A DNA stretch of 64,000 bases from Filimonas lacunae (GTDB lineage: Bacteria; Bacteroidota; Bacteroidia; Chitinophagales; Chitinophagaceae), in the NCBI RefSeq assembly GCF_002355595.1, contig NZ_AP017422.1:4900823-4964822 (forward strand). The letters run 5' to 3'. Positions 27,879-58,992 of this stretch are shown here, one piece after another; positions within the stretch are counted from its first letter, which is position 1; every line of letters starts with the position of its first letter. Below the pieces are notes generated by a model. The model made no database searches, was not told where the DNA came from, and saw nothing but the letters and a program-made list of their open reading frames with translations. Both the position numbers and the translations under genes were made by a program.

Positions 27879-27952
27879 CGGACCGGACGGGACTCGAACC
27901 CGCGACCTCCGCCGTGACAGGGCGGCATTCTAACCAACTGAACTACCGATCC
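27879..27952 (-). tRNA. tRNA-Asp (anticodon GTC)
   Basis: The reverse complement reads GGATCGGTAGTTCAGTTGGTTAGAATGCCGCCCTGTCACGGCGGAGGTCGCGGGTTCGAGTCCCGTCCGGTCCG. The GGATCGG/CCGGTCC acceptor stem, D-loop, CTGTCAC anticodon loop and GGTTCGAGTCC T-loop are all present, with G as discriminator. CCA is not encoded. Confidence 0.85.
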
Positions 27953-44841: not shown

Positions 44842-45596
44842 TACCCTTCACTTCTTTTTTGAGTAGTAATCCGTTGCATACTTAAACGGAAGGAACTAAT
44901 CGTTAAAGGCTGCAATTGCTGGGGAGCAATAGGTAACCAACTGCCTTCTTTTTGCCATAGCACCCAGTTATAATGGTCTTTCATATTACTACTAATCACT
45001 TCCGATAATATGCGCCATTCAAAATCGTAACCAACAGGTAGCAGAAAACGCTCATCCTTCCACAATACCTCTCCTTGCACGGGTAATAAAGGCACCCCTA
45101 TAACACAAGCGGTATGGTTATCCAGTATTATCCATTGCAGGGGCTGCAAACGCACAGCAGGCGCGGTTTCTATATAAGCCTGCAACACCTCCAGTTTCAC
45201 CAGCATCGCATATGCCTGCCTTTCCAGCTGGCTGGGCACCAGTGTAACTGGTATCGACTGCTGAATACCAAAGTAGTTGTGATTAAAGCCGGGCAGTGTA
45301 ACCCCTAAGCCTTTGGCTATAGGCTGCCAGTGTAAACCGGCAGGCATTGACTGTACCGGCACCAGTTTTCCAGCCGGAAACAGTTGCTGTTGTTTACAGT
45401 AATAGATAGTGATAAAAGGAATGCTTTTCACTGCCGTACTATCCAGCTGTTGCGGTGTAAAATCCTTTACCCAGCAATGCTCCCCCTCCTCTGCTATGCT
45501 CAGATTATCCCAATGCCTTATCCGCCCCAGGTAATGCCTGTGCGGCAGGGCCAGATGCAGCAGCCAGGTTATAGGGTTTGCAGCATCCTCTGCCAT
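44841..45596 (-). CDS. Hypothetical protein, operon member
   Basis: 251 aa. Its start overlaps the ATPase gene by 28 bp and its stop overlaps the next gene by 1 bp, so it is translationally coupled. Confidence 0.4.
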   Translation of the reverse strand: MAEDAANPITWLLHLALPHRHYLGRIRHWDNLSIAEEGEHCWVKDFTPQQLDSTAVKSIPFITIYYCKQQQLFPAGKLVPVQSMPAGLHWQPIAKGLGVTLPGFNHNYFGIQQSIPVTLVPSQLERQAYAMLVKLEVLQAYIETAPAVRLQPLQWIILDNHTACVIGVPLLPVQGEVLWKDERFLLPVGYDFEWRILSEVISSNMKDHYNWVLWQKEGSWLPIAPQQLQPLTISSFRLSMQRITTQKRSEG

Positions 45597-46699
45597 AACG
45601 CATCAATTTCCTTTTGAATAAATTGCTTTTGTTCCGCATCACTCACCCAATCGCACCGGGTTTGCACATAACGCAGCTTATCTTTCACTACATTCTGTTC
45701 TTCCGGCGACAAAGTGCTGTCGTTCCATTTCTGCACCAGCAAGGTCACCTCCTTCATTACCTCTTCGGCCTGCGGCACCTTATTGGTTAACGCCTGCGGA
45801 TGTGCAGTAGCTGCCGGCTCTTTTTCAATAATATTATTAATAATACCCGCCAGTATTTCTATCTGTTCTTCCGTATCCCATATATATTTCAGCACCCACA
45901 GATCGGACAGTTCCGCTACCTGGCGTTTACAGATCAATGCACTGGCCGCAATCAGGTTCTGCAACTTCACGGCACGGCGGTCGCTCACCTTAATGCCGGT
46001 GTTACGCAGACTATGAATGACATCTATATACTGCTTACGCACCGGTGCAATATCCACCTGGCGGCAAGCCTGTTGTAATTCTATAATAGCCTGCGGGCTA
46101 ATTACCGGTTGCTGTTCTTTTGCACGGCTTTCCATATTCCAGCCGGCCAGCAACACTTCGTGCAATCTGTCGGGGTTTACATAATCACACTTCACCCGTA
46201 TCAGAAACCTGTCCAGCAAGGCACTCAGCGCATCATCTTCAGGCAGCAGGTTACTGGCCCCTACAAACATCAGCGCAGGCAGCTTGCGGGTTTCTTTACC
46301 ACGGCGGAACAGTTTTTCGTTCAGCGCCATTAACAAGCTGTTTAAGATGGCGCTGTTGGCATTGAATATTTCATCTAAAAACACCAGCGATGCTTCGGGC
46401 ATCATGCCTTCGGTATTGGTTACCAGCTCGCCTTCTTTTAACCGGCGGATATCGAAAGGCCCGAATATTTCGTTGGGCTCGGTAAAACGGGTTAACAGGT
46501 ATTCAAAGTTCTTACCTCCTTCCAGGCATTCGCACAACAAGCGCACAATAGCACTTTTAGCGGTACCGGGAGGGCCTAATAAAAACAGGTTTTCGCGCGC
46601 TACCAGGCCTATGCCCAACAAATCGGCAATATCATCTTTACCCACAAAATTTTGTTTGATATAAGCCAGCACGGCATTCAGCTCATCTATCTGCTTCAT
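45569..46699 (-). CDS. RavA-like MoxR-family AAA+ ATPase
   Basis: Walker A LFLLGPPGTAKSAIVRLL and Walker B/sensor LVFLDEIFNANSAILNSLLMALNE. The block FEYLLTRFTEPNEIFGPFDIRRLKEGE closely parallels E. coli RavA ([27 protein letters not shown]). Confidence 0.8.
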   Translation of the reverse strand: MKQIDELNAVLAYIKQNFVGKDDIADLLGIGLVARENLFLLGPPGTAKSAIVRLLCECLEGGKNFEYLLTRFTEPNEIFGPFDIRRLKEGELVTNTEGMMPEASLVFLDEIFNANSAILNSLLMALNEKLFRRGKETRKLPALMFVGASNLLPEDDALSALLDRFLIRVKCDYVNPDRLHEVLLAGWNMESRAKEQQPVISPQAIIELQQACRQVDIAPVRKQYIDVIHSLRNTGIKVSDRRAVKLQNLIAASALICKRQVAELSDLWVLKYIWDTEEQIEILAGIINNIIEKEPAATAHPQALTNKVPQAEEVMKEVTLLVQKWNDSTLSPEEQNVVKDKLRYVQTRCDWVSDAEQKQFIQKEIDALWQRMLQTL

Positions 46700-46706
46700 A
46701 TAAACG

Positions 46707-47333
46707 TTATAAGTCTTTCCAGAAATAAGTAGTGTAATTGCCCATAGCCGCCATTACCCAAGGCTGCCACAACGGGTGTGTTGCCAGTGGTTTGTATTGG
46801 TATTGTATAATCCTGTTTACATACAATTGGCGTAAACAGTTATGTCGTAGTGCTATTTCCAATAGCTCATTCTCTATCCCTAACTCCAGGCCAATACCCG
46901 AATAATGCCAGCGCGTTAACACCTGCTCCAGCAAAGGAATCAGCACATCTTCTGCATCAATAGCCTGTAGCTGTTTAATAATCTGTGGCAAAAAGCGCAA
47001 ACAGAGATCTGCACTTAACATAGCCCCTTCCGTAACCGGGCCGGTATAGGACGGCAGCAGCGTGGGTATCTCTTCCACATGGTGTTTACGATCGAGCAAT
47101 AATAAAGAAGCCGTATACACCACCTGTGCCCCCCACAAAGCAGCAGCGCCATCAAACACCGGGGCGGTGCCGGGATATTCCAGGCATTCATTGCCATATT
47201 CCATTTCCAGAAAATGCGTCAGCAGTTCTTTATCTTCTTCCAACGGTGGCGTGTAGGAGGTATGCAGCAGAATTTCTTCGTGATTACGCAGATGGTAAAT
47301 GGTGTCCAGGAAAAAGTTGTTCAGAGTTGTCAT
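46707..47333 (-). CDS. Hypothetical protein, first gene of the MoxR operon
   Basis: 208 aa ending 7 bp upstream of the ATPase start. Confidence 0.4.
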   Translation of the reverse strand: MTTLNNFFLDTIYHLRNHEEILLHTSYTPPLEEDKELLTHFLEMEYGNECLEYPGTAPVFDGAAALWGAQVVYTASLLLLDRKHHVEEIPTLLPSYTGPVTEGAMLSADLCLRFLPQIIKQLQAIDAEDVLIPLLEQVLTRWHYSGIGLELGIENELLEIALRHNCLRQLYVNRIIQYQYKPLATHPLWQPWVMAAMGNYTTYFWKDL

Positions 47334-48238: not shown

Positions 48239-48841
48239 ATGCAACACACCTGGCTGCTGGCGCAAGAAGAAAAGGAACTGGTGCAAAATGCGCAGTGGCT
48301 GCTTACCAAGCAACGGGTGATTGAAAAAGTGTACGAACTATTCGGACAATTAAGCACCGCCTATACGCCTTTACTACAACAGTGCACGGCAGCCGATGCT
48401 GCCGTTAAAGCCGTATCGCCTAAAATTGCACGCGGCGAGTTTTACCGGCAGCTGCCTTATGTGGTACTGGACCAGCCCCGTTATTTTAAACAGGACGATG
48501 CCTTTGCCATCCGTTCTTTTTTCTGGTGGGGACACAGCTTTAGCATTCACCTGCACCTGGCGGGGCATTATAAAACCCTGCTTCAAAACGTATTGTCGCA
48601 AAAGTTAGCTGCCGGCCATTTGCAACAGTGGCAGGTGGCCACAGGTTCCGATCCCTGGCAGCATCATTTTGCCCCGGATACCTACATCCCTGTTACGCGC
48701 AATAACCACCCGGCTGTGCTGCAAACCTGGCAACAACAACCTTTCATAAAACTGGCCCGGGAACTTCCTTTGCAACAATGGGAACATGCCTATACCTTTT
48801 ACGTGGAGTCGTTTACGGCATTGATGGCCTTACTGGCCTAA
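48239..48841 (+). CDS. Hypothetical protein
   Basis: 200-aa ORF beginning 2 bp after the SDR stop (likely co-transcribed). No motif recognised. Confidence 0.4.
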   Translation: MQHTWLLAQEEKELVQNAQWLLTKQRVIEKVYELFGQLSTAYTPLLQQCTAADAAVKAVSPKIARGEFYRQLPYVVLDQPRYFKQDDAFAIRSFFWWGHSFSIHLHLAGHYKTLLQNVLSQKLAAGHLQQWQVATGSDPWQHHFAPDTYIPVTRNNHPAVLQTWQQQPFIKLARELPLQQWEHAYTFYVESFTALMALLA

Positions 48842-48847
48842 AAAAAC

Positions 48848-48885
48848 ATACCCCGTACGAAAACGGGGTATGAACTAAAAATCTA
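48848..48885. repeat. Hairpin repeat element copy 1 (ataccccgt-acgaaa-acggggtat + gaactaaaaatc)
   Basis: Perfect 9-bp stem with a GAAA-type loop, immediately followed by the 12-mer gaactaaaaatc. A second diverged copy lies about 300 bp downstream. Confidence 0.4.
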
Positions 48886-49149
48886 CGTTCCTAAAACACG
48901 AAGAGAACGTCAAATGTAGGAATTGTCCTGTGGCTTCCAAAACAATTGTCTACGACTTAATCAACTCCCTCGGTAGTTCTTAGGACGACTATCGCCACAC
49001 AGCATAAAAGAGCGATAACCGGACATATAAACATTTAGCATGTAGTTTGTTACATATAGAATCGTAAAACCCAACAGATATAACAGCTACAATTGGTATT
49101 TTTATAAAAGTTTTTTTCCTCTCCGCCATCCCCTTACATAAGGTACAAA

Positions 49150-49192
49150 AAACACCTCCCGCCCGAAAACGGAAGGTGAACTAAAAATCCAT
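49150..49192. repeat. Hairpin repeat element copy 2 (cacctcccgcccgaaaacggaaggtg + gaactaaaaatc)
   Basis: Imperfect stem around the same cgaaaacgg core, followed by the identical 12-mer gaactaaaaatc. It lies about 60 bp upstream of the SET gene start. Confidence 0.4.
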
Positions 49193-49249
49193 GCTTAAAA
49201 AAACATATGGTAAATGTAAAAAAACGTTGTTTCGTATCCAATACGTATC

Positions 49250-49732
49250 TTGCCTGCTATGGAATTATTAGAAAATCAACTTACCGTAAAAATATCCACC
49301 CTTCCAAATGCCGGCAAGGGCCTGTTTACTAAAAAAGCGATTATCAAAGGTGATAAAATTGTAGAATACACGGGTAAAATCACTACCTGGAAAGAAGTAG
49401 AACATACAGAGGGCACTAACCCCTACATCTTTTATGTGAACAAAAACCATGTGATAGACGCCAGCAAAGACGAATCTTCTATTGCTAAATATGCCAATGA
49501 TGCCCGCGGATTAACCAGAATAACCGGACTGGTTAACAATACAGAATTTGTAGAAGAAGGCACCCGCGTGTTTCTGATAGCTACAAAAGACATTCCTAAA
49601 GGAGGTGAAATTTTTGTGGGATATGGTAAAGAGTATTGGGATACCGTGAAGTTCAATATGAAAATTGATAAAGATGCCGCTGCTAAAAAAGCTGCCGGGA
49701 CTAAAAAGAAAAAGAAGAAAGCTAAAAAATAA
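49250..49732 (+). CDS. Bacterial SET-domain (putative protein-lysine methyltransferase) protein with a C-terminal poly-lysine tail
   Basis: GKGLFTKKAIIKGDKIVEYTG (SET-N GxG region), YANDARG (pseudo-NHSC position) and GGEIFVGYGKEYW (SET-C ELxxDY-like). The C-terminus reads KDAAAKKAAGTKKKKKKAKK. Confidence 0.6.
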   Translation: MPAMELLENQLTVKISTLPNAGKGLFTKKAIIKGDKIVEYTGKITTWKEVEHTEGTNPYIFYVNKNHVIDASKDESSIAKYANDARGLTRITGLVNNTEFVEEGTRVFLIATKDIPKGGEIFVGYGKEYWDTVKFNMKIDKDAAAKKAAGTKKKKKKAKK

Positions 49733-49882
49733 AAGAACAAGGATAAGACTATCCCTGTTTTATCACTCTAAACATGAAAAAAATCCTGTTCCCGATATAA
49801 ACAATCCGTTGATAATACTTAACGGCCTTGCATTATACCCGGAACGTTTTATAAAATGCAGGCTAACTTCTGCTATAAGCAA

Positions 49883-49914
49883 CCGGATGTTTCATCCGGG
49901 ATAATTTGTTTTTT
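49883..49914 (+). terminator. Rho-independent terminator of the SET gene
   Basis: Stem ccggatg / catccgg around a ttt loop, followed by gataatttgtttttt. Confidence 0.5.
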
Positions 49915-50050
49915 CTCATATATACTTTCACGGTTAGTGAGTTGCGTTAAACAATGTGTTTCCGCTGTTTAACCATGCAAAAGTGTCATAAATAGTTATA
50001 ACATTAAAAAGTACTATGTGAAATGCGCTTTGCCCTATGCGAAATGAAGA

Positions 50051-50084
50051 AGGCGCCCCGTTTTTACAACCGGGGCGCCTTTTT
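50051..50084. terminator. GC-rich hairpin terminator downstream of the giant minus-strand gene
   Basis: 10-bp stem aggcgccccg / cggggcgcct followed by tttt. Confidence 0.5.
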
Positions 50085-50104
50085 AGTATACATTATCGTG
50101 GTTA

Positions 50105-53100
50105 TTAACGCAGTAAGGTTACAGAACCCTGCCTGTGAATAACACGTCCATCTCTGTCAACACCTTCTGCCACCCATACATAAGTAGCCAATGGTTGTAA
50201 CTCGCCGTTAACATAACCATCCCAGCCATTGGCGGCATCACTGGTTTCAAACACCTTTTTACCCCAGCGGTTAAACACGCGGAAGTAGTTCAGCTTTTCC
50301 ACGCCTCTCAGGTTAGGCAGCAACTTATCGTTCTGGCCATCCCCGTTAGGCGTAAACACGTTTGGCACCAGTATGTCGTTACTAATCAGCACCTGCACCA
50401 GCAGGGTATCGGTAGTAACACAGCCCGATGGGAAGGTCATGGCTATTTCATACGTCTGGCTATTGTTTAGGGTAACCGTTGGGTTATAAACAGTAGCAGC
50501 AGACAAGCCGGTAGCAGGCGTCCAGCTGTAAGCAGCAGTAGTATAATTACGACATGTTATTGCCAACGGCTGGCCATTGGATGCAAAGGCTGTATTTAAC
50601 CTTACGGCTGGCACAGGCGCTTCTACAGTAATAGCATGGGTTACTGTAGAGTCTAACACAGGACACTCTAACAAGCTCACCTTTAATACAACATTATACG
50701 TACCGGCAGCAGCATAAGTAAACTCCGGAGCAGCCACAGTGCTGGTTTGTCCGTTGCCACTTTCCCAGTTGTAATGTACCGTAGCACTGTTGTCTACAGC
50801 AGAGCTGTTGGTAAAGGACACCGGTACATCTTTACAATAGCTGTCGAAGCTAAATGCCGGCTGTGGGGCAAGCAGTTGTGTTACTGCCAGGTTATTGCCT
50901 GCCATAGCACTACAACCATAGGTATCGGTAGCTTTAGCGGCGTAGGTACCCGGCGCATTAGCCGTCAGTGCCCCCGTGGTGTTACCAGCCACAGTCGCAT
51001 TATTGTAATACCATTCAAACGTATAAGTTCCGGAAGCCTGTAATGGCAGCTGCTTACCTGTGCCACACAATATCAATCCCTGGCTGGCCGATAAAGTACT
51101 CACCGGCAGCGGCGTTACGGTTAACTGACCATTTACATAAGTAAATACATAATCAGCAGCAGCAGCACCGGAAGGCACAATTACATAATCCCCTGCGGCC
51201 GACTGTGCAGTAGCAGCAGAAGCAGCTGTTGGCTGTGCCGTTAACACGGTAACAGACTCGCTGTTTACCCAACCACTATAGCTAAAGGCATAGTCGGGAT
51301 TCGCCACGCCATAACAACGATTGGTATCCTTAGCCGTAATAGTTACCGTAGCTGGTTGAATGGTGAGGGCACCATTTACAAAGCTGATAGTATAGTTATC
51401 AGAAGTAACACCACCCGGGGTAATTACATACTGGTTTACATGCGCTGCTCCCTGCGAAGTACCAGTGTACACCATTGTGCCACCCAACACTCCCGGTTGT
51501 TCATTACTTACCAGGCCACTATAGGTAACGCCATTACCGCCATTGAAGGCTGTGCCATCGTAGGTTTTAGTACTGTCTTTAGCCGTAATGGTTAAGGCAG
51601 CTTTATCTATGGTAAGCGCACCATCCACATACGTGATAGCATAGTTACCCGAAGTAACACCACTGGCAGTGATGCTATAAGAACCCGCATCGGCAGCACC
51701 TTGTGCAGTGCCGCTGTAAGCAATATTACCCGACAACACAGCTGCATCTTCATCAGGTACAAAACCACTGTAAGTAACGCCATTGCCGCCACTAAAGGTA
51801 GTAGCGTCGTAGGTTTTGGCACTGTCAGTAGCTGTAATAGTTAAAGCTGCCTGGTTAATTTGTAAAGCACCGCTGGTATAGCTTACAGCATAGTTATCTG
51901 CTGTTAAACCACCCGGGGTTATTATATATATATTAGCATCTTTAGCGCCCTGTGAGGTGCCACTATAAGCCAGTGTACCGGTTAAAGCAGCAGTGGAATC
52001 TTCATTATTTACAAAACCACTGTAAGTAACACCATTGCCACCGCTAAAGGCAGTGCCATCGTAGGTTTTGGTGCTATCGGCAGCAGTTACGATTAAAGCC
52101 GCTTTATCAATAGTTAAAGCGCCATTGGCATAGCTGATGGTATAGTTATCAGCAGATAAGCCACCCGGCGTAATAACATAGGTATCGGCTTTGGTAGCGC
52201 CTTGTGCGCTGCCGCTATAAGCCAGCGTACCGGTTAAAGCAGCAGTAGAATCATCCCCTGTTACAAAACCAGTATAGCTAACACCATTACCACCACCAAA
52301 GGCCACACCGTCATATGTTTTGGCGCTATCCTTCGCAGTTACGGTTAAAGCAGCTTTGTCAATGGTTAAGCTACCATTAGCATAGCTGATGGTATAGTTA
52401 ACAGCCGTTAAACCACCCGGTGTAATAACATAGGTATTCGCATCTTTAGCTCCCTGAGAAGTACCACTATAGGTTACTGTACCGGTTAAGGCTGCCGTAG
52501 AATCATCACCTGTTACAAAACCGGCATATTCCAAACCATTACCATCGTTGAAGGCGGTACCATCGTAAGTTTTAGTACTGTCTTTTGCTGTGATGGTTAA
52601 TGCGGCTTTATCAATGGTTAAAGTACCATTGGTATAGCTGATAGCGTAGTTGCCCGCAGATAAACCACCCGGAGTAATGATATAGCTATCGGCATTAACA
52701 GCCCCTTGCGAGGTTCCACTGTAAATTACTGTTCCGGTTAACACAGCAGTGGAATCTTCTCCGTTTACAAAACCATTGTAAGTAACACCATTGCCACCGT
52801 TAAACGCAGTACCATCATAAACCCGGGTACTATCAGTAGCAGTGACGGTTAACGCAGCTTTATCAATAGTTAAAGCACCGTTTACATAGTTAATAGTATA
52901 GTTACCGGCAGATAAACCACCCGGTGTGATCATATAAGCATTGGCATCAACAGCTCCTTGCGAAGTACCCGTGTAAGTGAGGTTACCGGTTAAAGCAGCA
53001 GTAGAATCGTCTCCTGTTACAAAACCAGTATAGCTAACACCATTACCACCGCCAAAGGCCACACCGTCATAGGTTTTAGTGCTATCCTTGGCAGTTACAG

Positions 53101-56100
53101 TTAAAGCAGCTTTGTTTATAATTAAGCTACCATTAGCATAAGTGATAGTATAGTTGGCAGCCGATAATCCGGCAGGTGTAATTATATAAGTATTTACATT
53201 CTTAGCCCCCTGCGAAGTACCGCTATACGTTACCGTTCCGGTTAAAGCGGCAGTAGAATCATCCCCCGTTGCAAAACCGGTATAAGTTAATCCATTACCA
53301 CCGGTGTACCCTGTACCATCATAGGTTTTAGTGGTGTCTTTAGCAGCTACTGTTAAAGCAGCTTTGCTAATGGTTAAGGTTCCATCGGCGTAAGTAATAG
53401 CATAGTTATCAGCAGATAAACCACCCGGCGTAATAGCATAGGTGTTTACATTTTTAGCACCCTGTGAGGTGCCGGCATAAGTTACTGCGCCTGTTAAAGC
53501 CGCAGTGGAGTCATCGCCGTTTACAAAGCCGCTGTAAGCAATACCATTGCCACCGCCAAAACCTGTGCCACTGTAAACAACCGTACTGTCTTTAGCCGTA
53601 ACGGTTAAGGCAGCTTTGTTAATAGTTAAAGCAAACAGCACATTAGTTGCCGGTGCATAAGTAGCATCGCCCGCCTGACTCATGGTAATGTTTACTACAC
53701 CCGCTTTCTTTGCTTTTATTTTCCAGCTATTATTATCAGCAGCATCCTGGAACACTTCTGCAATAGTGTTATCTGCCGAACTCAAAGCAACCGTTAAGCC
53801 TGAACTGGCAGCAAAGGCCCTGGTAAACACATCACCATATACTACAGTAGTATCAGTCAATGCAGTAATGGTTTGAGATGCTAACTGCAATTCATAAGCG
53901 CCCTGGTCAATAGCAGCTCCCATAAAACGGGCATTGCCGGCCAGATCTGTAGTAATAGTATCATTTGCATGGTAAATGCTATCATATCCTGCATTTATAG
54001 CCGGACTGACAGATTGTAAACTATAGTTACCACCTACAAATGGTGCTGAAGTAAAAGCATTGCTACTTACAAATAACGGATCTATGTCCGTGATATGATT
54101 AGCAGCATCAGCTGTGGCCTCCTGAATGGTGCTGTACATAGCATTATAGGTTCCTGAAATACCAGCACCATTACCATATATGATACTATTGAGCACAGAA
54201 ACCGGAGAAGATCCTGCATTAAGAATAGCCGTTTTATTATTACCGCTGATGGTACTGTTAATTACCTTCAATGTACCATTAGCTATGCGAATAATACCAT
54301 AATCGGTAGTAGCAGTATTGTAGTTGCCGGTTATCTGTGTATTCAGGAACACCACATTAGAGCCAGCGCTATTCAAATAGCCTACAGCAATGTAAGTACC
54401 GGCAACACAACCTTTTATAGTACAGTTTTCGAACAGAACATTTGCGTTACTGGCAGTACTGAAAGCTCCACCCATTGCAAGACAAGTGTCTCTTAAAAAT
54501 TCACATTTATAAAAGGTAAGTTTAGAAGCGATGCCGCTGGCATAGAAAGCGCCCCCCAGTGTAGTGGCTTTGTTATCGTTAAAAGAGGATTGCTGAAAAT
54601 AAGCAATTGCATTGTCTCCACAATAGAGCGCTCCTGCAGCTACTGATGAAGTGTTGTTATTAAAAGACGATTGGCGGCAATAAACGGTAGCTGCTGTGGT
54701 AAAGTAAAACATACCACCGATGGCACTCGCCGACCCTGAAATGGAATTATAGCTGCCGGTACAATTTTCCAGTTGCACAGTAGCATAAGTAGCATACATA
54801 CCTGCGCCATATACCAGGCCCGAATTATTAGTAATATTCACACGCCGGAATGTGGCATTTGCCATTACATCACCCGATCCTGCATACACTGCTGCCCCTG
54901 CTCCTCTATTGTTATAATTATTGGTAAGCACCATATCTTCAATTAAAAGCGCAGCGCTTCTTACTGTTATCCCACCACCAAATTCAAGATTAGAATTCAC
55001 CCCGTTTACCACAACGTTACCTGAAATCTCAGCATAGGCTCCTGAAATGGTAAAGCCACTGATTAAAGCCTGGCCCATTTCACCAGCTGCTATTACTACA
55101 CGATAAGTGTTATCTGACCTGGTTCCTGCTGTACCTATATCGCCACTTAAAATAGTAGTATTAGTAGTAAAGTTACGGCCGGTAGTATCCGTTTCGTTCC
55201 CGGCAAAGCCACCATAGATTTTGGTATCTTTTACCAGCACAAAAGAGTTATAACGGTTTGTATTGGTATTTGCCCCACCAGTAGCATCGTTAGCAGGATA
55301 AGCAGGATAATAAGTTCCCTTAGCCACCCATATTTGCTTTACTTTACCTGCAGCAACAGCATTCATAATAGCAGTCTCTTTTAAAGCATCTGCCACCTCT
55401 CCCACTGCGTTAGCCCAACTGCTACCATTACCGGTACCGCCTTTTTTCACAAAAAGAACTCCGTTAGCATCGGTAGCAAGTGAAATCACCAATTTTCCAT
55501 TGGCGTAAGTAATAGTATAGTTATCTGCCAATAAACCGGCAGGCGTATTAGTATAGGTTCCCCTACTGATAGCCCCCTGCGCAGTACCGCTGTAAGTAAG
55601 CGCCCCTGTTAAGGCGGAAGTAGAATCATCCCCATTTACAAAACCGCTGTAGATAGCACCATTACCACCGCTAAAAGCAGCACCGGTATAAGCGATCACG
55701 CTATCTTTAGCCGTAACTGTTAAAGCAGCTTTATTGACAGTAACAGCAAACACCACATCTGGCGCTGCTGCATTATAATAACTATTGCCTGCCTGACTGG
55801 CTGTAATGTTTACAGCACCGGCACCTTTTATTTTTAATTTCCATTTATTACCATCTGCTGCATCCTGATAAGGCTGGGCTATAGCATTATTAGCAGAACT
55901 ATAGCTTACCGTTAAACCAGAAGTGGCTGTACCAGTTAATACCATAGCAGCATCACCATAAGTAGCTGTAATATCTGCTATGGCATTGATGGTTTGGGCC
56001 TGCTTCACAAACTGCAATTCATATGCACCTAAATCTATAGAATCTTTAGAAATACGTGGCTGGCCATCCAGATCCACCGCAGTAGCACCACTTACCTGGT

Positions 56101-57895
56101 TATATAAATACAACGCACCAGTATCTCTGACAGGACTGCTGTTCTGCAAACGATAATCGCCATTGGTAAACGGTGCATTAATATAAGCCACCGGGCTTAC
56201 AAACGACGGATCCTTGTTTATCACATGGCTGGCTGCATCCTCTGTTGCATCCTGTAGCAAAGACCAGGTAGTGCTTCCCGAAAAAGCTACTCCCGTACTA
56301 TTTCCATACACAATACAGTTTTGCAGTGTTTGCGGAGAAGTGCTGGATATAGCTCCCCATACTGTACCCGTGGCAATAACCTTGTTGCCACAGATGGTTA
56401 CATTGGTAAATTTGCAGGGATTTGACGCTGCACAAAGAACACCTCCACCATCGCTGGCAGCTGCATTACCGGCAATAAGCACATTCGCAGCTGATATCCC
56501 CTCCGAAGTATATAATCCACCACCAGTAGTAGCAGCATAACAACCCATGATAGAATCACTGATAAACGTAGTTGTACCGCTGTTATACACCCCACCACCG
56601 TATGCAGCAGAATCTCTCAGGAAAGAACAATGGGTAACAGACAAAGCAATACTTGAAAACAAGCCCCCTCCCATGTTCCCTGCTTTATTATCCCAGAACC
56701 GGCAACTATCTAATGTACTAGCTGCCTGGGTAAAATATCCGCCGCCGCCATTTCCATTAACGCTATTCGTACTTTTATTGTTGAGAATTGTACAATTTTT
56801 GAAAGTAGAAGTTGCCTGAGAATACACGCCACCACCAAAATTGAGCGAAGTATTTCCTTCCAGCACACTGTTTTTCAAAGTCAGTATACCATTATTAGCC
56901 TGCATAATCGCACCACCAATACTGGTAGCTGTATTGTTCTTAAAAATAGAATTAGACAATACAGAATTAGCAGTAATAGTATATAAACCACCACCGCCAG
57001 TTGCTGTATTATTATGAATATTCAAATCATGAAATGCAGCTGTAACAGTTACTATATACAATCCTCCACCCTGATAAGCAGCGTTACTATATAGTTCGCT
57101 ATTGCTTAACACAGGCGTACCCGTTCCAGCTACACGTATCCCACCTCCCATGGAGGTGGAAGTATTAGTAGTAGTACTAACATTGTTATCTACTACTATA
57201 TTGGTAAGCACCGGCGAAGAAGCACCTTCTATAGTAACACCACCGCCACCTGCATAAGCTGTGTTGCCCGTAACACGAACATTGGTAACATAAGGAGAAG
57301 CATTCATAATATACAATCCTCCGCCGCGGTTGATAGCAACACTCACTCCGTTTACTACTCTGGAACTGGTTGCAGTAGACGTATAACCACCTGTAATAGT
57401 AAAACCGTTTAACAATACCTGCCCCGATAAATTACTGGCAATTACTACATGGTACGCATTGTCTGTAGCCGTACCCGCCACATTAAGGTCGCCACTTAAT
57501 ATACTGGCATTGGCCGTATTGGTTAAATCGCGGGCAGCCGTGTCTGTTTCAGTTCCCGCAAAACCGCCATATACCTTTACATTATCCAGCAATACAAACG
57601 AATTGGTTACATCGGTAGTAGTAGCTGCACCAGCTGATCCGTCATACTGCGCATACAAAGGATAATACGTACCTGCCGCTACCCATATTTGTTTTACGGT
57701 TCCTGGAGTACTGTTTAAGGAAGTGCCATCTTTTAAAGCCTTGGCCATTTCGCCCAATGCATTGGCCCAGCTGCTGCCGTTACCGGTGCTGCCTTTTTTT
57801 ACATACAATATGCCATTGGCATCGGGTGTTGTTTGTGCCTGCGCCCAACCCAGGGTTAGGATACACAACAGGGAAAACAGGATAATCTTTTTCAT
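50105..57895 (-). CDS. Giant T9SS type-B cargo / adhesin-like protein with right-handed beta-helix modules, tandem MBG-like repeats and a gliding-motility-associated C-terminal (CHU_C) sorting domain
   Basis: Signal peptide from M at 57895 (MKKIILFSLLCILTLGWAQAQ); the longest ORF starts at 57919. Gly/Asn/Thr-rich parallel beta-helix repeats. About 10 tandem copies of (K/Q)AALTVTAKDSTKTYDG...YTGFVxGDDSTAALTG. The C-terminus VFTPNGDGQNDKL...FNRWGKKVFE...GWDG is the type-B T9SS sorting domain. Confidence 0.8.
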   Translation of the reverse strand: MKKIILFSLLCILTLGWAQAQTTPDANGILYVKKGSTGNGSSWANALGEMAKALKDGTSLNSTPGTVKQIWVAAGTYYPLYAQYDGSAGAATTTDVTNSFVLLDNVKVYGGFAGTETDTAARDLTNTANASILSGDLNVAGTATDNAYHVVIASNLSGQVLLNGFTITGGYTSTATSSRVVNGVSVAINRGGGLYIMNASPYVTNVRVTGNTAYAGGGGVTIEGASSPVLTNIVVDNNVSTTTNTSTSMGGGIRVAGTGTPVLSNSELYSNAAYQGGGLYIVTVTAAFHDLNIHNNTATGGGGLYTITANSVLSNSIFKNNTATSIGGAIMQANNGILTLKNSVLEGNTSLNFGGGVYSQATSTFKNCTILNNKSTNSVNGNGGGGYFTQAASTLDSCRFWDNKAGNMGGGLFSSIALSVTHCSFLRDSAAYGGGVYNSGTTTFISDSIMGCYAATTGGGLYTSEGISAANVLIAGNAAASDGGGVLCAASNPCKFTNVTICGNKVIATGTVWGAISSTSPQTLQNCIVYGNSTGVAFSGSTTWSLLQDATEDAASHVINKDPSFVSPVAYINAPFTNGDYRLQNSSPVRDTGALYLYNQVSGATAVDLDGQPRISKDSIDLGAYELQFVKQAQTINAIADITATYGDAAMVLTGTATSGLTVSYSSANNAIAQPYQDAADGNKWKLKIKGAGAVNITASQAGNSYYNAAAPDVVFAVTVNKAALTVTAKDSVIAYTGAAFSGGNGAIYSGFVNGDDSTSALTGALTYSGTAQGAISRGTYTNTPAGLLADNYTITYANGKLVISLATDANGVLFVKKGGTGNGSSWANAVGEVADALKETAIMNAVAAGKVKQIWVAKGTYYPAYPANDATGGANTNTNRYNSFVLVKDTKIYGGFAGNETDTTGRNFTTNTTILSGDIGTAGTRSDNTYRVVIAAGEMGQALISGFTISGAYAEISGNVVVNGVNSNLEFGGGITVRSAALLIEDMVLTNNYNNRGAGAAVYAGSGDVMANATFRRVNITNNSGLVYGAGMYATYATVQLENCTGSYNSISGSASAIGGMFYFTTAATVYCRQSSFNNNTSSVAAGALYCGDNAIAYFQQSSFNDNKATTLGGAFYASGIASKLTFYKCEFLRDTCLAMGGAFSTASNANVLFENCTIKGCVAGTYIAVGYLNSAGSNVVFLNTQITGNYNTATTDYGIIRIANGTLKVINSTISGNNKTAILNAGSSPVSVLNSIIYGNGAGISGTYNAMYSTIQEATADAANHITDIDPLFVSSNAFTSAPFVGGNYSLQSVSPAINAGYDSIYHANDTITTDLAGNARFMGAAIDQGAYELQLASQTITALTDTTVVYGDVFTRAFAASSGLTVALSSADNTIAEVFQDAADNNSWKIKAKKAGVVNITMSQAGDATYAPATNVLFALTINKAALTVTAKDSTVVYSGTGFGGGNGIAYSGFVNGDDSTAALTGAVTYAGTSQGAKNVNTYAITPGGLSADNYAITYADGTLTISKAALTVAAKDTTKTYDGTGYTGGNGLTYTGFATGDDSTAALTGTVTYSGTSQGAKNVNTYIITPAGLSAANYTITYANGSLIINKAALTVTAKDSTKTYDGVAFGGGNGVSYTGFVTGDDSTAALTGNLTYTGTSQGAVDANAYMITPGGLSAGNYTINYVNGALTIDKAALTVTATDSTRVYDGTAFNGGNGVTYNGFVNGEDSTAVLTGTVIYSGTSQGAVNADSYIITPGGLSAGNYAISYTNGTLTIDKAALTITAKDSTKTYDGTAFNDGNGLEYAGFVTGDDSTAALTGTVTYSGTSQGAKDANTYVITPGGLTAVNYTISYANGSLTIDKAALTVTAKDSAKTYDGVAFGGGNGVSYTGFVTGDDSTAALTGTLAYSGSAQGATKADTYVITPGGLSADNYTISYANGALTIDKAALIVTAADSTKTYDGTAFSGGNGVTYSGFVNNEDSTAALTGTLAYSGTSQGAKDANIYIITPGGLTADNYAVSYTSGALQINQAALTITATDSAKTYDATTFSGGNGVTYSGFVPDEDAAVLSGNIAYSGTAQGAADAGSYSITASGVTSGNYAITYVDGALTIDKAALTITAKDSTKTYDGTAFNGGNGVTYSGLVSNEQPGVLGGTMVYTGTSQGAAHVNQYVITPGGVTSDNYTISFVNGALTIQPATVTITAKDTNRCYGVANPDYAFSYSGWVNSESVTVLTAQPTAASAATAQSAAGDYVIVPSGAAAADYVFTYVNGQLTVTPLPVSTLSASQGLILCGTGKQLPLQASGTYTFEWYYNNATVAGNTTGALTANAPGTYAAKATDTYGCSAMAGNNLAVTQLLAPQPAFSFDSYCKDVPVSFTNSSAVDNSATVHYNWESGNGQTSTVAAPEFTYAAAGTYNVVLKVSLLECPVLDSTVTHAITVEAPVPAVRLNTAFASNGQPLAITCRNYTTAAYSWTPATGLSAATVYNPTVTLNNSQTYEIAMTFPSGCVTTDTLLVQVLISNDILVPNVFTPNGDGQNDKLLPNLRGVEKLNYFRVFNRWGKKVFETSDAANGWDGYVNGELQPLATYVWVAEGVDRDGRVIHRQGSVTLLR
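51340..53650. repeat. In-frame tandem DNA repeats (~252-bp period, ~9-10 copies) encoding MBG-like ~84-aa domains within the giant gene
   Basis: The motif gttaaagcagctttatcaatggttaaagcacc recurs at ~51591, 51838, 52093, 52338, 52596, 52846, 53101, 53352 and 53606. An outlying copy is at 55717. Confidence 0.6.
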
Positions 57896-57987
57896 CTTAG
57901 AAAAGGAGGTTATTTCCATGATTGAATACAGGAAACTGCTGCCACTTTTTTACAGTGGTGCAGTAGATATAAAAATGTATAGAGGGA

Positions 57988-58992
57988 TTAGTAAGTAACT
58001 ACCGGGCTGGCGGCCACCTTTTGTGTATGCCCTTTGCCCATTTGCCATACAAACGACAACTCCAGGCTTTGTACAGAAGCATTGCTTGCTGCGCCGGAGG
58101 TAACAAAATCGTAAGTAAGCCCTACCAGCCAGTTTTTGGTTTCCAGTGCAAAGTAAGGATACCAGGCATCGCCAAAGCGATTCCAAACGCCTACGTTTAC
58201 ACTGCGCAGCAGTTCGTCGTTCACACCTATTTTATATATACCACCCAGGGTATAAATGCTGTTGTCACCCTGCAACTCGGCCAGTGAACTGAAATGAAGA
58301 GAGTTATTATAGCCTACCTGCATCCAGCCACCTGCTTGCAAAGTGGTTTTGGTAGGCATATTATAGGTAGTATTACTGTAAGCACCTTCGCGGGGTTTGT
58401 TGGCATGGAACAGTGCACCGCCAGCAGACAAGCCAAATTTTTCAGCAGTATAGCTGTAAGTTAATCCCGCACTTACGTCCAAATAGGTATTCTTTTGAAT
58501 AGTAATACCGTCATTGGCAGGTATGCTGCGTTGAAAACCCATAGAGCCTAACTGCGATTGAAAGAGAAATTTACTGGCATCGAGTACCCGGTTGGCATAG
58601 GTGCCGGTAAGCCCTGCCCCCAGCATATGCCTGCCTTGTGCATCCAGCGTAATATGATAAGCAGCGGATAAAGAGAAGTAGTTGTTTTTTAAAATACCAC
58701 CGTTCGATTGGTCGCTTAAAGCCACTAAACCTAATCCCCAGTAGTTTTGTCCGTTGCCCAGCCTTTTTTCCAGCGAAGCGGTTTCGGTAAAATACGGTTT
58801 AATAGATTGCCCCCACCATTGCGAGCGCATATTGATGGCACCGCGCCAATCATCTACCCCTTTGGCAGTTAAGGCCGGGTTCACCAACATGGGAGCACTA
58901 AAATATTGCGAAAAATGCGGGTCTTGAGCTTGTAGGGCTTCACTAGTGAACAAAACATAGCAACTCAGAAGCAGGTACTTCAGTTGTTTCAT
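57988..58992 (-). CDS. PorP/SprF-family type IX secretion membrane protein
   Basis: Signal peptide followed by QDPHFSQYFSAPMLVNPALTA, the PorP/SprF N-terminal signature. It lies directly downstream of the type-B cargo gene, as usual for this family. 334 aa. Confidence 0.8.
   Translation of the reverse strand: MKQLKYLLLSCYVLFTSEALQAQDPHFSQYFSAPMLVNPALTAKGVDDWRGAINMRSQWWGQSIKPYFTETASLEKRLGNGQNYWGLGLVALSDQSNGGILKNNYFSLSAAYHITLDAQGRHMLGAGLTGTYANRVLDASKFLFQSQLGSMGFQRSIPANDGITIQKNTYLDVSAGLTYSYTAEKFGLSAGGALFHANKPREGAYSNTTYNMPTKTTLQAGGWMQVGYNNSLHFSSLAELQGDNSIYTLGGIYKIGVNDELLRSVNVGVWNRFGDAWYPYFALETKNWLVGLTYDFVTSGAASNASVQSLELSFVWQMGKGHTQKVAASPVVTY

Follow-up and report, generated by a model that had tools for sequence, protein, structure and literature searches.

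We describe a small gene of the freshwater species Filimonas lacunae, located on the plus strand of the window (the whole stretch of 64,000 nucleotides that was analysed), whose product is probably a stand-alone, cytoplasmic, minimal SET/PR-type protein-lysine N-methyltransferase that would depend on SAM and be tethered by its tail to a polyanion, either the nucleoid or the ribosome. In a protein database match the product agrees in all 157 aa with the public F. lacunae protein SAMN05421788_103339 (100% identity), whose UniRef name is 'SET domain-containing protein'. The find is sound and fairly ordinary: the protein belongs to a known domain family and already carries the correct domain name as its annotation in public databases, with no unusual genetic context or mechanism demonstrated. 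Mildly new are the definition of an Asn-Asp (ND-type) subfamily leaning towards the PR domains, the recurrent but optional polybasic tail, and a predicted leaderless transcript. The features of the gene and its product are as follows, all on the plus strand.

49259-49732: the SET gene, 157 codons plus stop, defined by the ORF listing, the identity to the public protein, the N-termini of homologues and the Pfam SET match.
49259-49642: catalytic SET core, residues 1-128, net charge -1, pI 6.1.
49313-49321: G19-K20-G21, the GxG SAM-binding loop (SET motif I).
49364-49375: E36-Y37-T38-G39, the EYxG motif, placed by HMMER alignment to SETD8 chains; E36, Y37 and G39 are invariant in 37 homologues.
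49490-49504: Y78-A79-N80-D81-A82, a variant of the NH(S/x)C motif, placed by alignment to SETD8 and by the invariance of N80 and D81.
49607-49639: E117-I-F-V120-G-Y122-G-K-E-Y126-W127, an ELxF/YDY-type catalytic-Tyr motif with the post-SET aromatic pair, placed by alignment to SETD8 'eELLYDYG'.
49628-49729: C-terminal helix, residues 124-157, one continuous predicted helix, net charge +10.
49667-49729: polybasic Lys/Ala tail, residues 137-157 (DKDAAAKKAAGTKKKKKKAKK), 21 residues with 11 Lys, net +9, pI 10.4.

An earlier reading of this DNA from its sequence only had given the product as 160 aa, beginning at TTG 49250. The ORF at 49250-49732 (plus strand) does contain in its translation GKGLF, IVEYTG, YANDARG, GGEIFVGYGKEYW and the tail AAKKAAGTKKKKKKAKK. 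The start is almost certainly ATG 49259 and the length 157 aa, because the public protein also has 157 aa and all homologues start with M[AE]LLE, their alignment to the SET protein running from Met1; TTG 49250 itself falls within the predicted -7 promoter box.

The assignment of a SET domain, for which the sequence-only reading had suggested the PF00856 profile and structure prediction as checks, was upheld by both. The Pfam SET profile (PF00856) aligns over its full length, positions 1-105 of 105, and scores 49.9 bits (cut-off 22.4; E=4.8e-13); it also matches each of the 91 aligned family members. An AF2 model built from the 91-sequence alignment, with 50%-identity representatives included, has pLDDT 94.7 and pTM 0.84; a first run on 37 close homologues only had reached pLDDT 71, so that the gain came with the more diverse alignment. 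Foldseek assigns this model to the SET fold with probability 1.00, and PR domains are among the closest folds. The same leaning is seen in the profiles: PRDM2_PR (Pfam PF21549) matches 58 of the 91 family members at E<=1e-3 and scores the Filimonas protein at 26.2 bits against a cut-off of 27, just below the curated threshold. Judged by these profile matches the family inclines towards PR-type SET domains, with an affinity to the PR-domain subtype and not membership of it. No Pfam families other than SET/PR match the protein, even at E<=1, and its best solved relatives by sequence are SETD8/KMT5A, PRDM12, MLL/KMT2, EZH2, NSD and Legionella LegAS4.

In the mechanism that we propose, the SET beta-fold spans residues 1-128 and holds the cofactor loop G19xG21, Tyr37 in the lysine channel, Asn80 and the catalytic Tyr122; Tyr126-Trp127 would be the post-SET cap, and the long helix from residue 124 would continue into the +9 Lys/Ala tail. 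This tail would be a non-specific electrostatic tether to nucleoid DNA or rRNA, keeping the enzyme beside the bacterium's own abundant substrate proteins that associate with nucleic acid.

The Lys-rich tail noticed in the sequence-only reading is real, with its net charge of +9 over 21 residues attached to a near-neutral core. DSSP on the AF2 model gives a helix at 124-156 with pLDDT 93-96 per block, and such a high pLDDT for an isolated Lys/Ala helix is no evidence of function. Among 120 close homologues, 75 have a basic extension and 32 have none, while in the wider representatives the counts are 25 and 63 of 107. Since about a quarter of the close homologues and more than half of the distant ones lack a basic tail, the tail is an accessory element, neither essential to the core function nor part of the catalytic mechanism. 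The tails are highly variable, close relatives alone spanning lengths of 0 to about 80-100 residues, and their sequences are unrelated; their composition is similar across relatives (36% Lys plus Ala, Gly and Thr). In homologues from Niastella and Longitalea (P0038-P0117) they are tandem repeats of the form (KVNGK)n of up to ~80 residues, and in P0180 a 99-residue AAKKAAPKK array; the shortest tails elsewhere are KKKK stretches. The long Niastella/Longitalea and P0180 tails are much more histone-H1/Hc1-like than the Filimonas tail. For the latter, the earlier label 'histone-H1-like' holds for composition alone: the Pfam search returned no linker-histone or Hc1 homology, the tail has 21 residues against the about 100 aa expected of a K/A/P-rich domain, and many homologues do without any tail.

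The recurrence of basic extensions with unrelated sequences, in close and distant relatives alike, suggests that the charge of the tail, and not its sequence, is under selection, and that positive charge was gained repeatedly and independently is consistent with selection for binding of a polyanion (DNA, rRNA, possibly polyphosphate). We put tail-mediated polyanion binding, for which the known systems discussed below serve as analogies, at slightly under an even chance. A rather unlikely alternative is that the tail is not a nucleic-acid tether at all, and is instead a pseudo-substrate or auto-methylation site, an anchor to membrane (acidic phospholipid) or to polyphosphate, or a near-neutral slippage expansion on A-rich codons. 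The wide variation of length and sequence among close relatives would suit it, and so would the coding DNA of the tail, an imperfect A-rich repeat that falls in repeat families D2 and D4; moreover, the chlamydial SET protein NUE auto-methylates (PMC10117894). However, the recurrence of unrelated extensions with similar composition is more easily explained by selection for positive charge, and a hydrophobic or amphipathic membrane-anchor pattern is not evident in the tail.

SETD8/KMT5A, the human H4K20 mono-methyltransferase, is the best solved relative by sequence (about 20-22% identity) and provides the frame for the active site. The SAM-pocket residues, whose loss would have spoken against the SET assignment, are kept: G19 and G21 are invariant in the 37 close homologues and near-invariant in the 50%-identity representatives. 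In the HMMER alignment Tyr37 is the Tyr of the SETD8 VVEYHG motif, in the lysine channel, and N80-D81 sit on the N-H of SETD8 'rlinhs', both being invariant in the 37 homologues. The canonical N-H of the (R)FINHSCxPN motif is thus found in part, with Asn80 present and the His replaced by Asp81, which takes the place of SETD8 His299 (NHS motif). The 'pseudo-NHSC' site of the sequence-only reading is therefore well placed, and it extends far beyond the close homologues: of 144 wider representatives, which share 50% identity or less, 133 have Asp where the canonical His would be. Because the Asn is kept and the Asp is systematic at the His position, the change from NH to ND is, as judged from the alignments, a subfamily signature, neither decay nor a one-off loss. 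The position of SETD8 Tyr334, the Phe/Tyr switch, is taken by Val120. Further towards the C-terminus E117, V120, Y122, G123, Y126 and W127 are invariant in the 37 homologues and strongly conserved in the wider family, and N93 and N94 are also invariant in the close set. As further differences from SETD8, the bacterium has no nucleosomes and the Filimonas protein has a polybasic C-terminal tail.

The cofactor and lysine-pocket positions are conserved across the 144 representatives as they are in the 37 close homologues, which argues for selection on a working active site. Given this strong conservation of pocket residues, an active enzyme is the more likely reading, and we regard catalytic activity of the Filimonas protein as quite likely. 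A catalytically dead or very weak SET/PR-like module, acting in binding or as an adaptor for lysine peptides or for tail-tethered partners, is less probable than even the alternative readings of the tail, being favoured by the replacement of the canonical His of NHxC by Asp throughout the family, by the PRDM2_PR matches in most members and by the PR domains among the closest folds, several PRDM PR domains having no detectable activity. Many PR domains are weak or inactive enzymes; active ones are known in the PR-type branch too, PRDM9 among them, beside modules that are inactive. The motifs N-C-A-R and V-x-Y-G-x-E-Y of PRDM9 presumably resemble N-D-A-R and V-G-Y-G-K-E-Y here. A PDB search with the C-terminal half only, aimed at PRDM9-type alignments, returned noise-level matches only. 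The Filimonas protein differs from the PRDM PR domains (PRDM2, 3, 5, 9, 12) in being bacterial and single-domain, with no zinc fingers.

For the likely substrate of a methyltransferase of this kind we turned to prokaryotic SET proteins, compared by description. The chlamydial cpnSET/NUE is likewise a small stand-alone bacterial SET protein with a basic C-terminal stretch (KHRKKR near position 206), and cpnSET binds and methylates the bacterial histone-H1-like protein Hc1 (PMC3980110, PMC10117894). So likened, cpnSET/NUE is the nearest functional parallel to a bacterial SET enzyme directed at the nucleoid. The chlamydial protein is type III-secreted and also acts on host histones, in contrast to the Filimonas protein, to which no secretion signal or system is linked. 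Go1-SET of Methanosarcina mazei methylates the endogenous DNA-binding chromatin protein MC1-alpha (PMC3980110); it too is a stand-alone prokaryotic SET protein, but archaeal and with no polybasic tail reported. By analogy with the pairs cpnSET-Hc1 and Go1-SET-MC1-alpha we tentatively suggest an endogenous nucleoid or ribosomal substrate for the Filimonas enzyme. Across 81 loci, no gene neighbours tie the SET enzyme to nucleoid or ribosomal proteins.

The family is large. The protein database search gave 1416 clusters at 90% identity, at least 590 stretches in species-representative genomes were confirmed by tblastn, and 367 representatives were found at E<=1e-10 in a library of 1.8 billion proteins. 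The earlier statement that free-standing bacterial SET proteins are uncommon does not survive these counts, with 1416 clusters and at least 590 confirmed genomic matches in this one family. Over 500 bacterial genomes with SET proteins were known by 2014, and bacterial SET proteins have been known for two decades (PMC10117894); a literature search for SET proteins in Chitinophagaceae found nothing. The matches listed include Chitinophagaceae (Niastella, Terrimonas, Flavihumibacter, Pinibacter, Ferruginibacter) and Cytophagales (Fulvivirgaceae, Roseivirgaceae, Chryseosolibacter, Cyclobacteriaceae), and those of them with a genus or species name are soil, water and plant-associated taxa. The family is common in soil and water Bacteroidota. 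The named genera Niastella, Terrimonas, Pinibacter and Flavihumibacter are free-living.

A cytoplasmic location is predicted from the sequence, since only SET/PR models match the protein, its alignment with homologues starts from Met1, leaving no N-terminal signal sequence, and it has no T9SS C-terminal domain. These observations bear on the possibility that the protein is an exported 'nucleomodulin' effector whose tail is a nuclear localisation signal and which methylates histones of a eukaryotic host or grazer, as do RomA/LegAS4, NUE, BtSET and BaSET. We consider it very unlikely: as far as these two export signals and the profile matches go, neither a signal peptide nor a T9SS C-terminal domain is present, no secretion genes are conserved near the SET gene across the 81 loci, many members have no tail, the family occurs widely and is locally syntenic within the Filimonas clade, and the taxa named among the matches listed are free-living ones of soil, water and plants. 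Legionella LegAS4/RomA, an effector of 450-480 aa with ankyrin repeats that is translocated by Dot/Icm, is unlike the Filimonas protein, which scores 27 bits against a cut-off of 550 with the NCBIfam AnkI/LegAS4 model.

BurB is a bacterial SET-like enzyme, solved in complex with methionine. That the Filimonas protein is, like BurB, a SET-fold enzyme acting on a small molecule instead of a protein lysine is the least credible of the alternatives, given that BurB has 16% identity and ranks below ~30 protein-lysine methyltransferases, that a biosynthetic gene cluster surrounds the gene in none of the 81 loci, and that the lysine-channel tyrosines are conserved.

The protein-lysine methyltransferase that we favour would be expressed from a transcription unit of its own, with a -7 box in front of the ATG, a hairpin directly behind the stop codon and a predicted leaderless mRNA. 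The elements around the gene are listed here.

48841-48896 and 49147-49202: 56-nt direct repeats, 73% identical, each with a hairpin.
48842-49258: spacer between the upstream 200-aa gene and the SET gene, 417 bp, GC 0.34-0.38.
48847-48872 and 49153-49178: hairpins 1 and 2, minus-strand sense, with the conserved 5' flank GATTTTTAGTTCA.
48957-49034, minus strand: 25-aa hydrophobic small ORF MFICPVIALLCCVAIVVLRTTEGVD, between the two hairpins.
49227-49258, plus strand: conserved promoter-proximal block CAATACGTATCTTGCCT, which within the Filimonas clade is invariant in the window and in the loci L081 and L082.
49246-49253, plus strand: -7 box TATCTTGC, which fits TAnnTTGY and ends 5 nt before the ATG.
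49734-49761, plus strand: candidate terminator stem-loop, directly after the stop and followed by UUAUCACUCU; -10.9 kcal/mol, z=-2.65.
50049-50084: GC-rich hairpin, -29 kcal/mol, z=-5.8, with A-run and T-run flanks.

The sequence TA[TA]CTTGCC, followed after 4-5 nt by ATG, is also found in the loci L083, L084 and L085, whose upstream genes differ. A Bacteroidota -7-type box of the form TAnnTT[TC][GA] occurs no more than 70 nt from the ATG in 61 of the 81 loci, compared with 8% of random windows, the Filimonas box being the rarer TAnnTTGY variant. A scan for sigma-70 promoters gave 4 sites against 4.3 expected, such a scan being uninformative for this phylum. In Flavobacterium psychrophilum the TAnnTTGY box stands at -12 to -5 and leaderless mRNAs make up 5.5% (PMC9723704). 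In Bacteroides thetaiotaomicron 5' UTRs shorter than 10 nt account for ~3.7%; leaderless and very-short-leader mRNAs are a minority class in the phylum. From the TAnnTTGY box ending 5 nt before the ATG, we predict that the SET mRNA is on balance leaderless, with a start at about 49258, one base before the ATG.

At the other end, the stem-loop at 49734-49761 is the probable terminator of the SET transcript. Hairpins with differing stems occur at the same post-stop position in L081 (-13.8 kcal/mol), L082 (-19.2) and L084 (-17.4), those of L082 and L084 with T-rich tails. A simple terminator scan made no plus-strand call at 49734-49761, where the U-tract is weak. The description of the gene as monocistronic with its own terminator agrees with the -7 box, with this hairpin and with its counterparts in L081, L082 and L084, from all of which it can be inferred. 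The same scan skipped the hairpin at 50049-50084, probably as its 10-nt loop exceeds the 3-8-nt limit; this hairpin is probably a bidirectional terminator, located just after the stop of the 2604-aa gene described below.

The region upstream of the gene had been described as a 400-bp ORF-free AT-rich leader carrying a pair of hairpin repeats. It is AT-rich, and the pair of hairpins exists, within 56-nt direct repeats; it is not free of ORFs, having small ones of 21-46 aa, and its role as a leader is contradicted both by the -7 box that ends 5 nt before the ATG and by the length of the spacer in the close relatives L082 and L084, just 54-62 nt. Nor do the hairpins look like leader elements: each has its T-run on the minus strand, the orientation of a terminator for that strand. 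The G-U pairs of hairpin 2 form only in the minus-strand RNA, which folds at -18.0 kcal/mol, compared with -10.9 for the plus strand; the stems differ between the two copies yet stay paired, and hairpin 1 is kept in L081 with a compensatory stem change. Judged by these features, the two hairpins look like intrinsic terminators of the minus strand. Upstream of hairpin 2 on that strand there is only the antisense strand of the SET gene. Since hairpin 2 lies within a ~93-nt insertion that is missing in L081, and the gap is 54-62 nt in L082 and L084, the spacer is, on this comparison of loci, variable inserted material and not a conserved 5' UTR of the SET gene. Rfam at permissive thresholds gave no known RNA family in 48780-50110, all matches having E>0.09 and scores far below the gathering scores. 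The flank GATTTTTAGTTCA was considered as a dispersed repeat and rejected: the window has two copies only, not enriched over shuffles, and in 83 loci it occurs once more, in the syntenic L081.

The 25-aa ORF between the hairpins may be a gene for a small membrane peptide ending at hairpin 1. A 24-aa counterpart, MHISLIIAVVFILIAVFLDYREYD, is encoded at the same position in L081 (3807-3881, minus strand). The ORF is missing from L082 and L084, both of which are without the spacer.

The wider surroundings in the window are the following.

27879-27952, minus strand: tRNA gene; nothing else in the window exceeds its Rfam gathering score.
45569-47333, minus strand: genes of a MoxR-vWA-beta-propeller ternary system (bpMoxR 45569-46699, bpX4 46707-47333).
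48239-48841, plus strand: gene of a 200-aa protein directly upstream of SET, with no Pfam or PADLOC match.
50105-58992, minus strand: a 2604-aa repeat-rich surface protein and a PorP/SprF-family T9SS membrane protein (57988-58992), between SET and the GerE response regulator.

The gene order in the Filimonas clade is bpMoxR-bpX4, short-chain dehydrogenase, 200-aa protein, SET, GerE-type response regulator and histidine kinase. Beyond the bpMoxR-bpX4 genes, further large minus-strand ORFs reach back to ~37861, and the block and the SET region are syntenic within the clade. The surface-protein and PorP/SprF pair is a ~9-kb insertion, lineage-specific because L081, L082 and L084 are without both genes. 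The 200-aa gene stands beside the dehydrogenase gene in L081, L082 and L084, and in L082 its stop is 54 nt from the SET start. No operon partner was found: in an all-against-all BLASTP comparison of six-frame ORFs from the 81 loci, no neighbour is common to more than 15 of them. The PADLOC defence models gave no matches to the SET protein or to the upstream 200-aa protein.

The SET gene has a GC content of 0.378 and GC3 of 0.36, against GC of ~0.50 and GC3 of 0.51-0.55 in the two upstream genes; the adjoining adhesin gene has GC3 similar to that of the SET gene. Lys-rich codon usage, expression-linked codon bias or an old horizontal transfer are possible reasons for this low GC. Horizontal transfer, the candidate raised by the composition, is not favoured, since the gene keeps its synteny in the Filimonas clade, the family is found across the order, and the GC3 of the adhesin gene is similar.

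Nearly all of the bacterial SET enzymes studied so far are effectors of pathogens, not proteins of free-living bacteria. An ND-type PR-like SET methyltransferase that is recruited by its tail to the nucleoid or ribosomes and marks endogenous nucleic-acid-binding proteins in free-living Bacteroidota is, taken as a whole, a speculative picture to which we assign a low probability. If true, it would amount to a housekeeping chromatin-like modification system in bacteria that have neither histones nor a host, and the strength of tethering would be tuned as the tail is repeatedly gained, lost and expanded. Being abundant, small and single-domain, with an Asn-Asp variant and a plastic tail, the family would offer a convenient model for the endogenous substrates of bacterial SET proteins.
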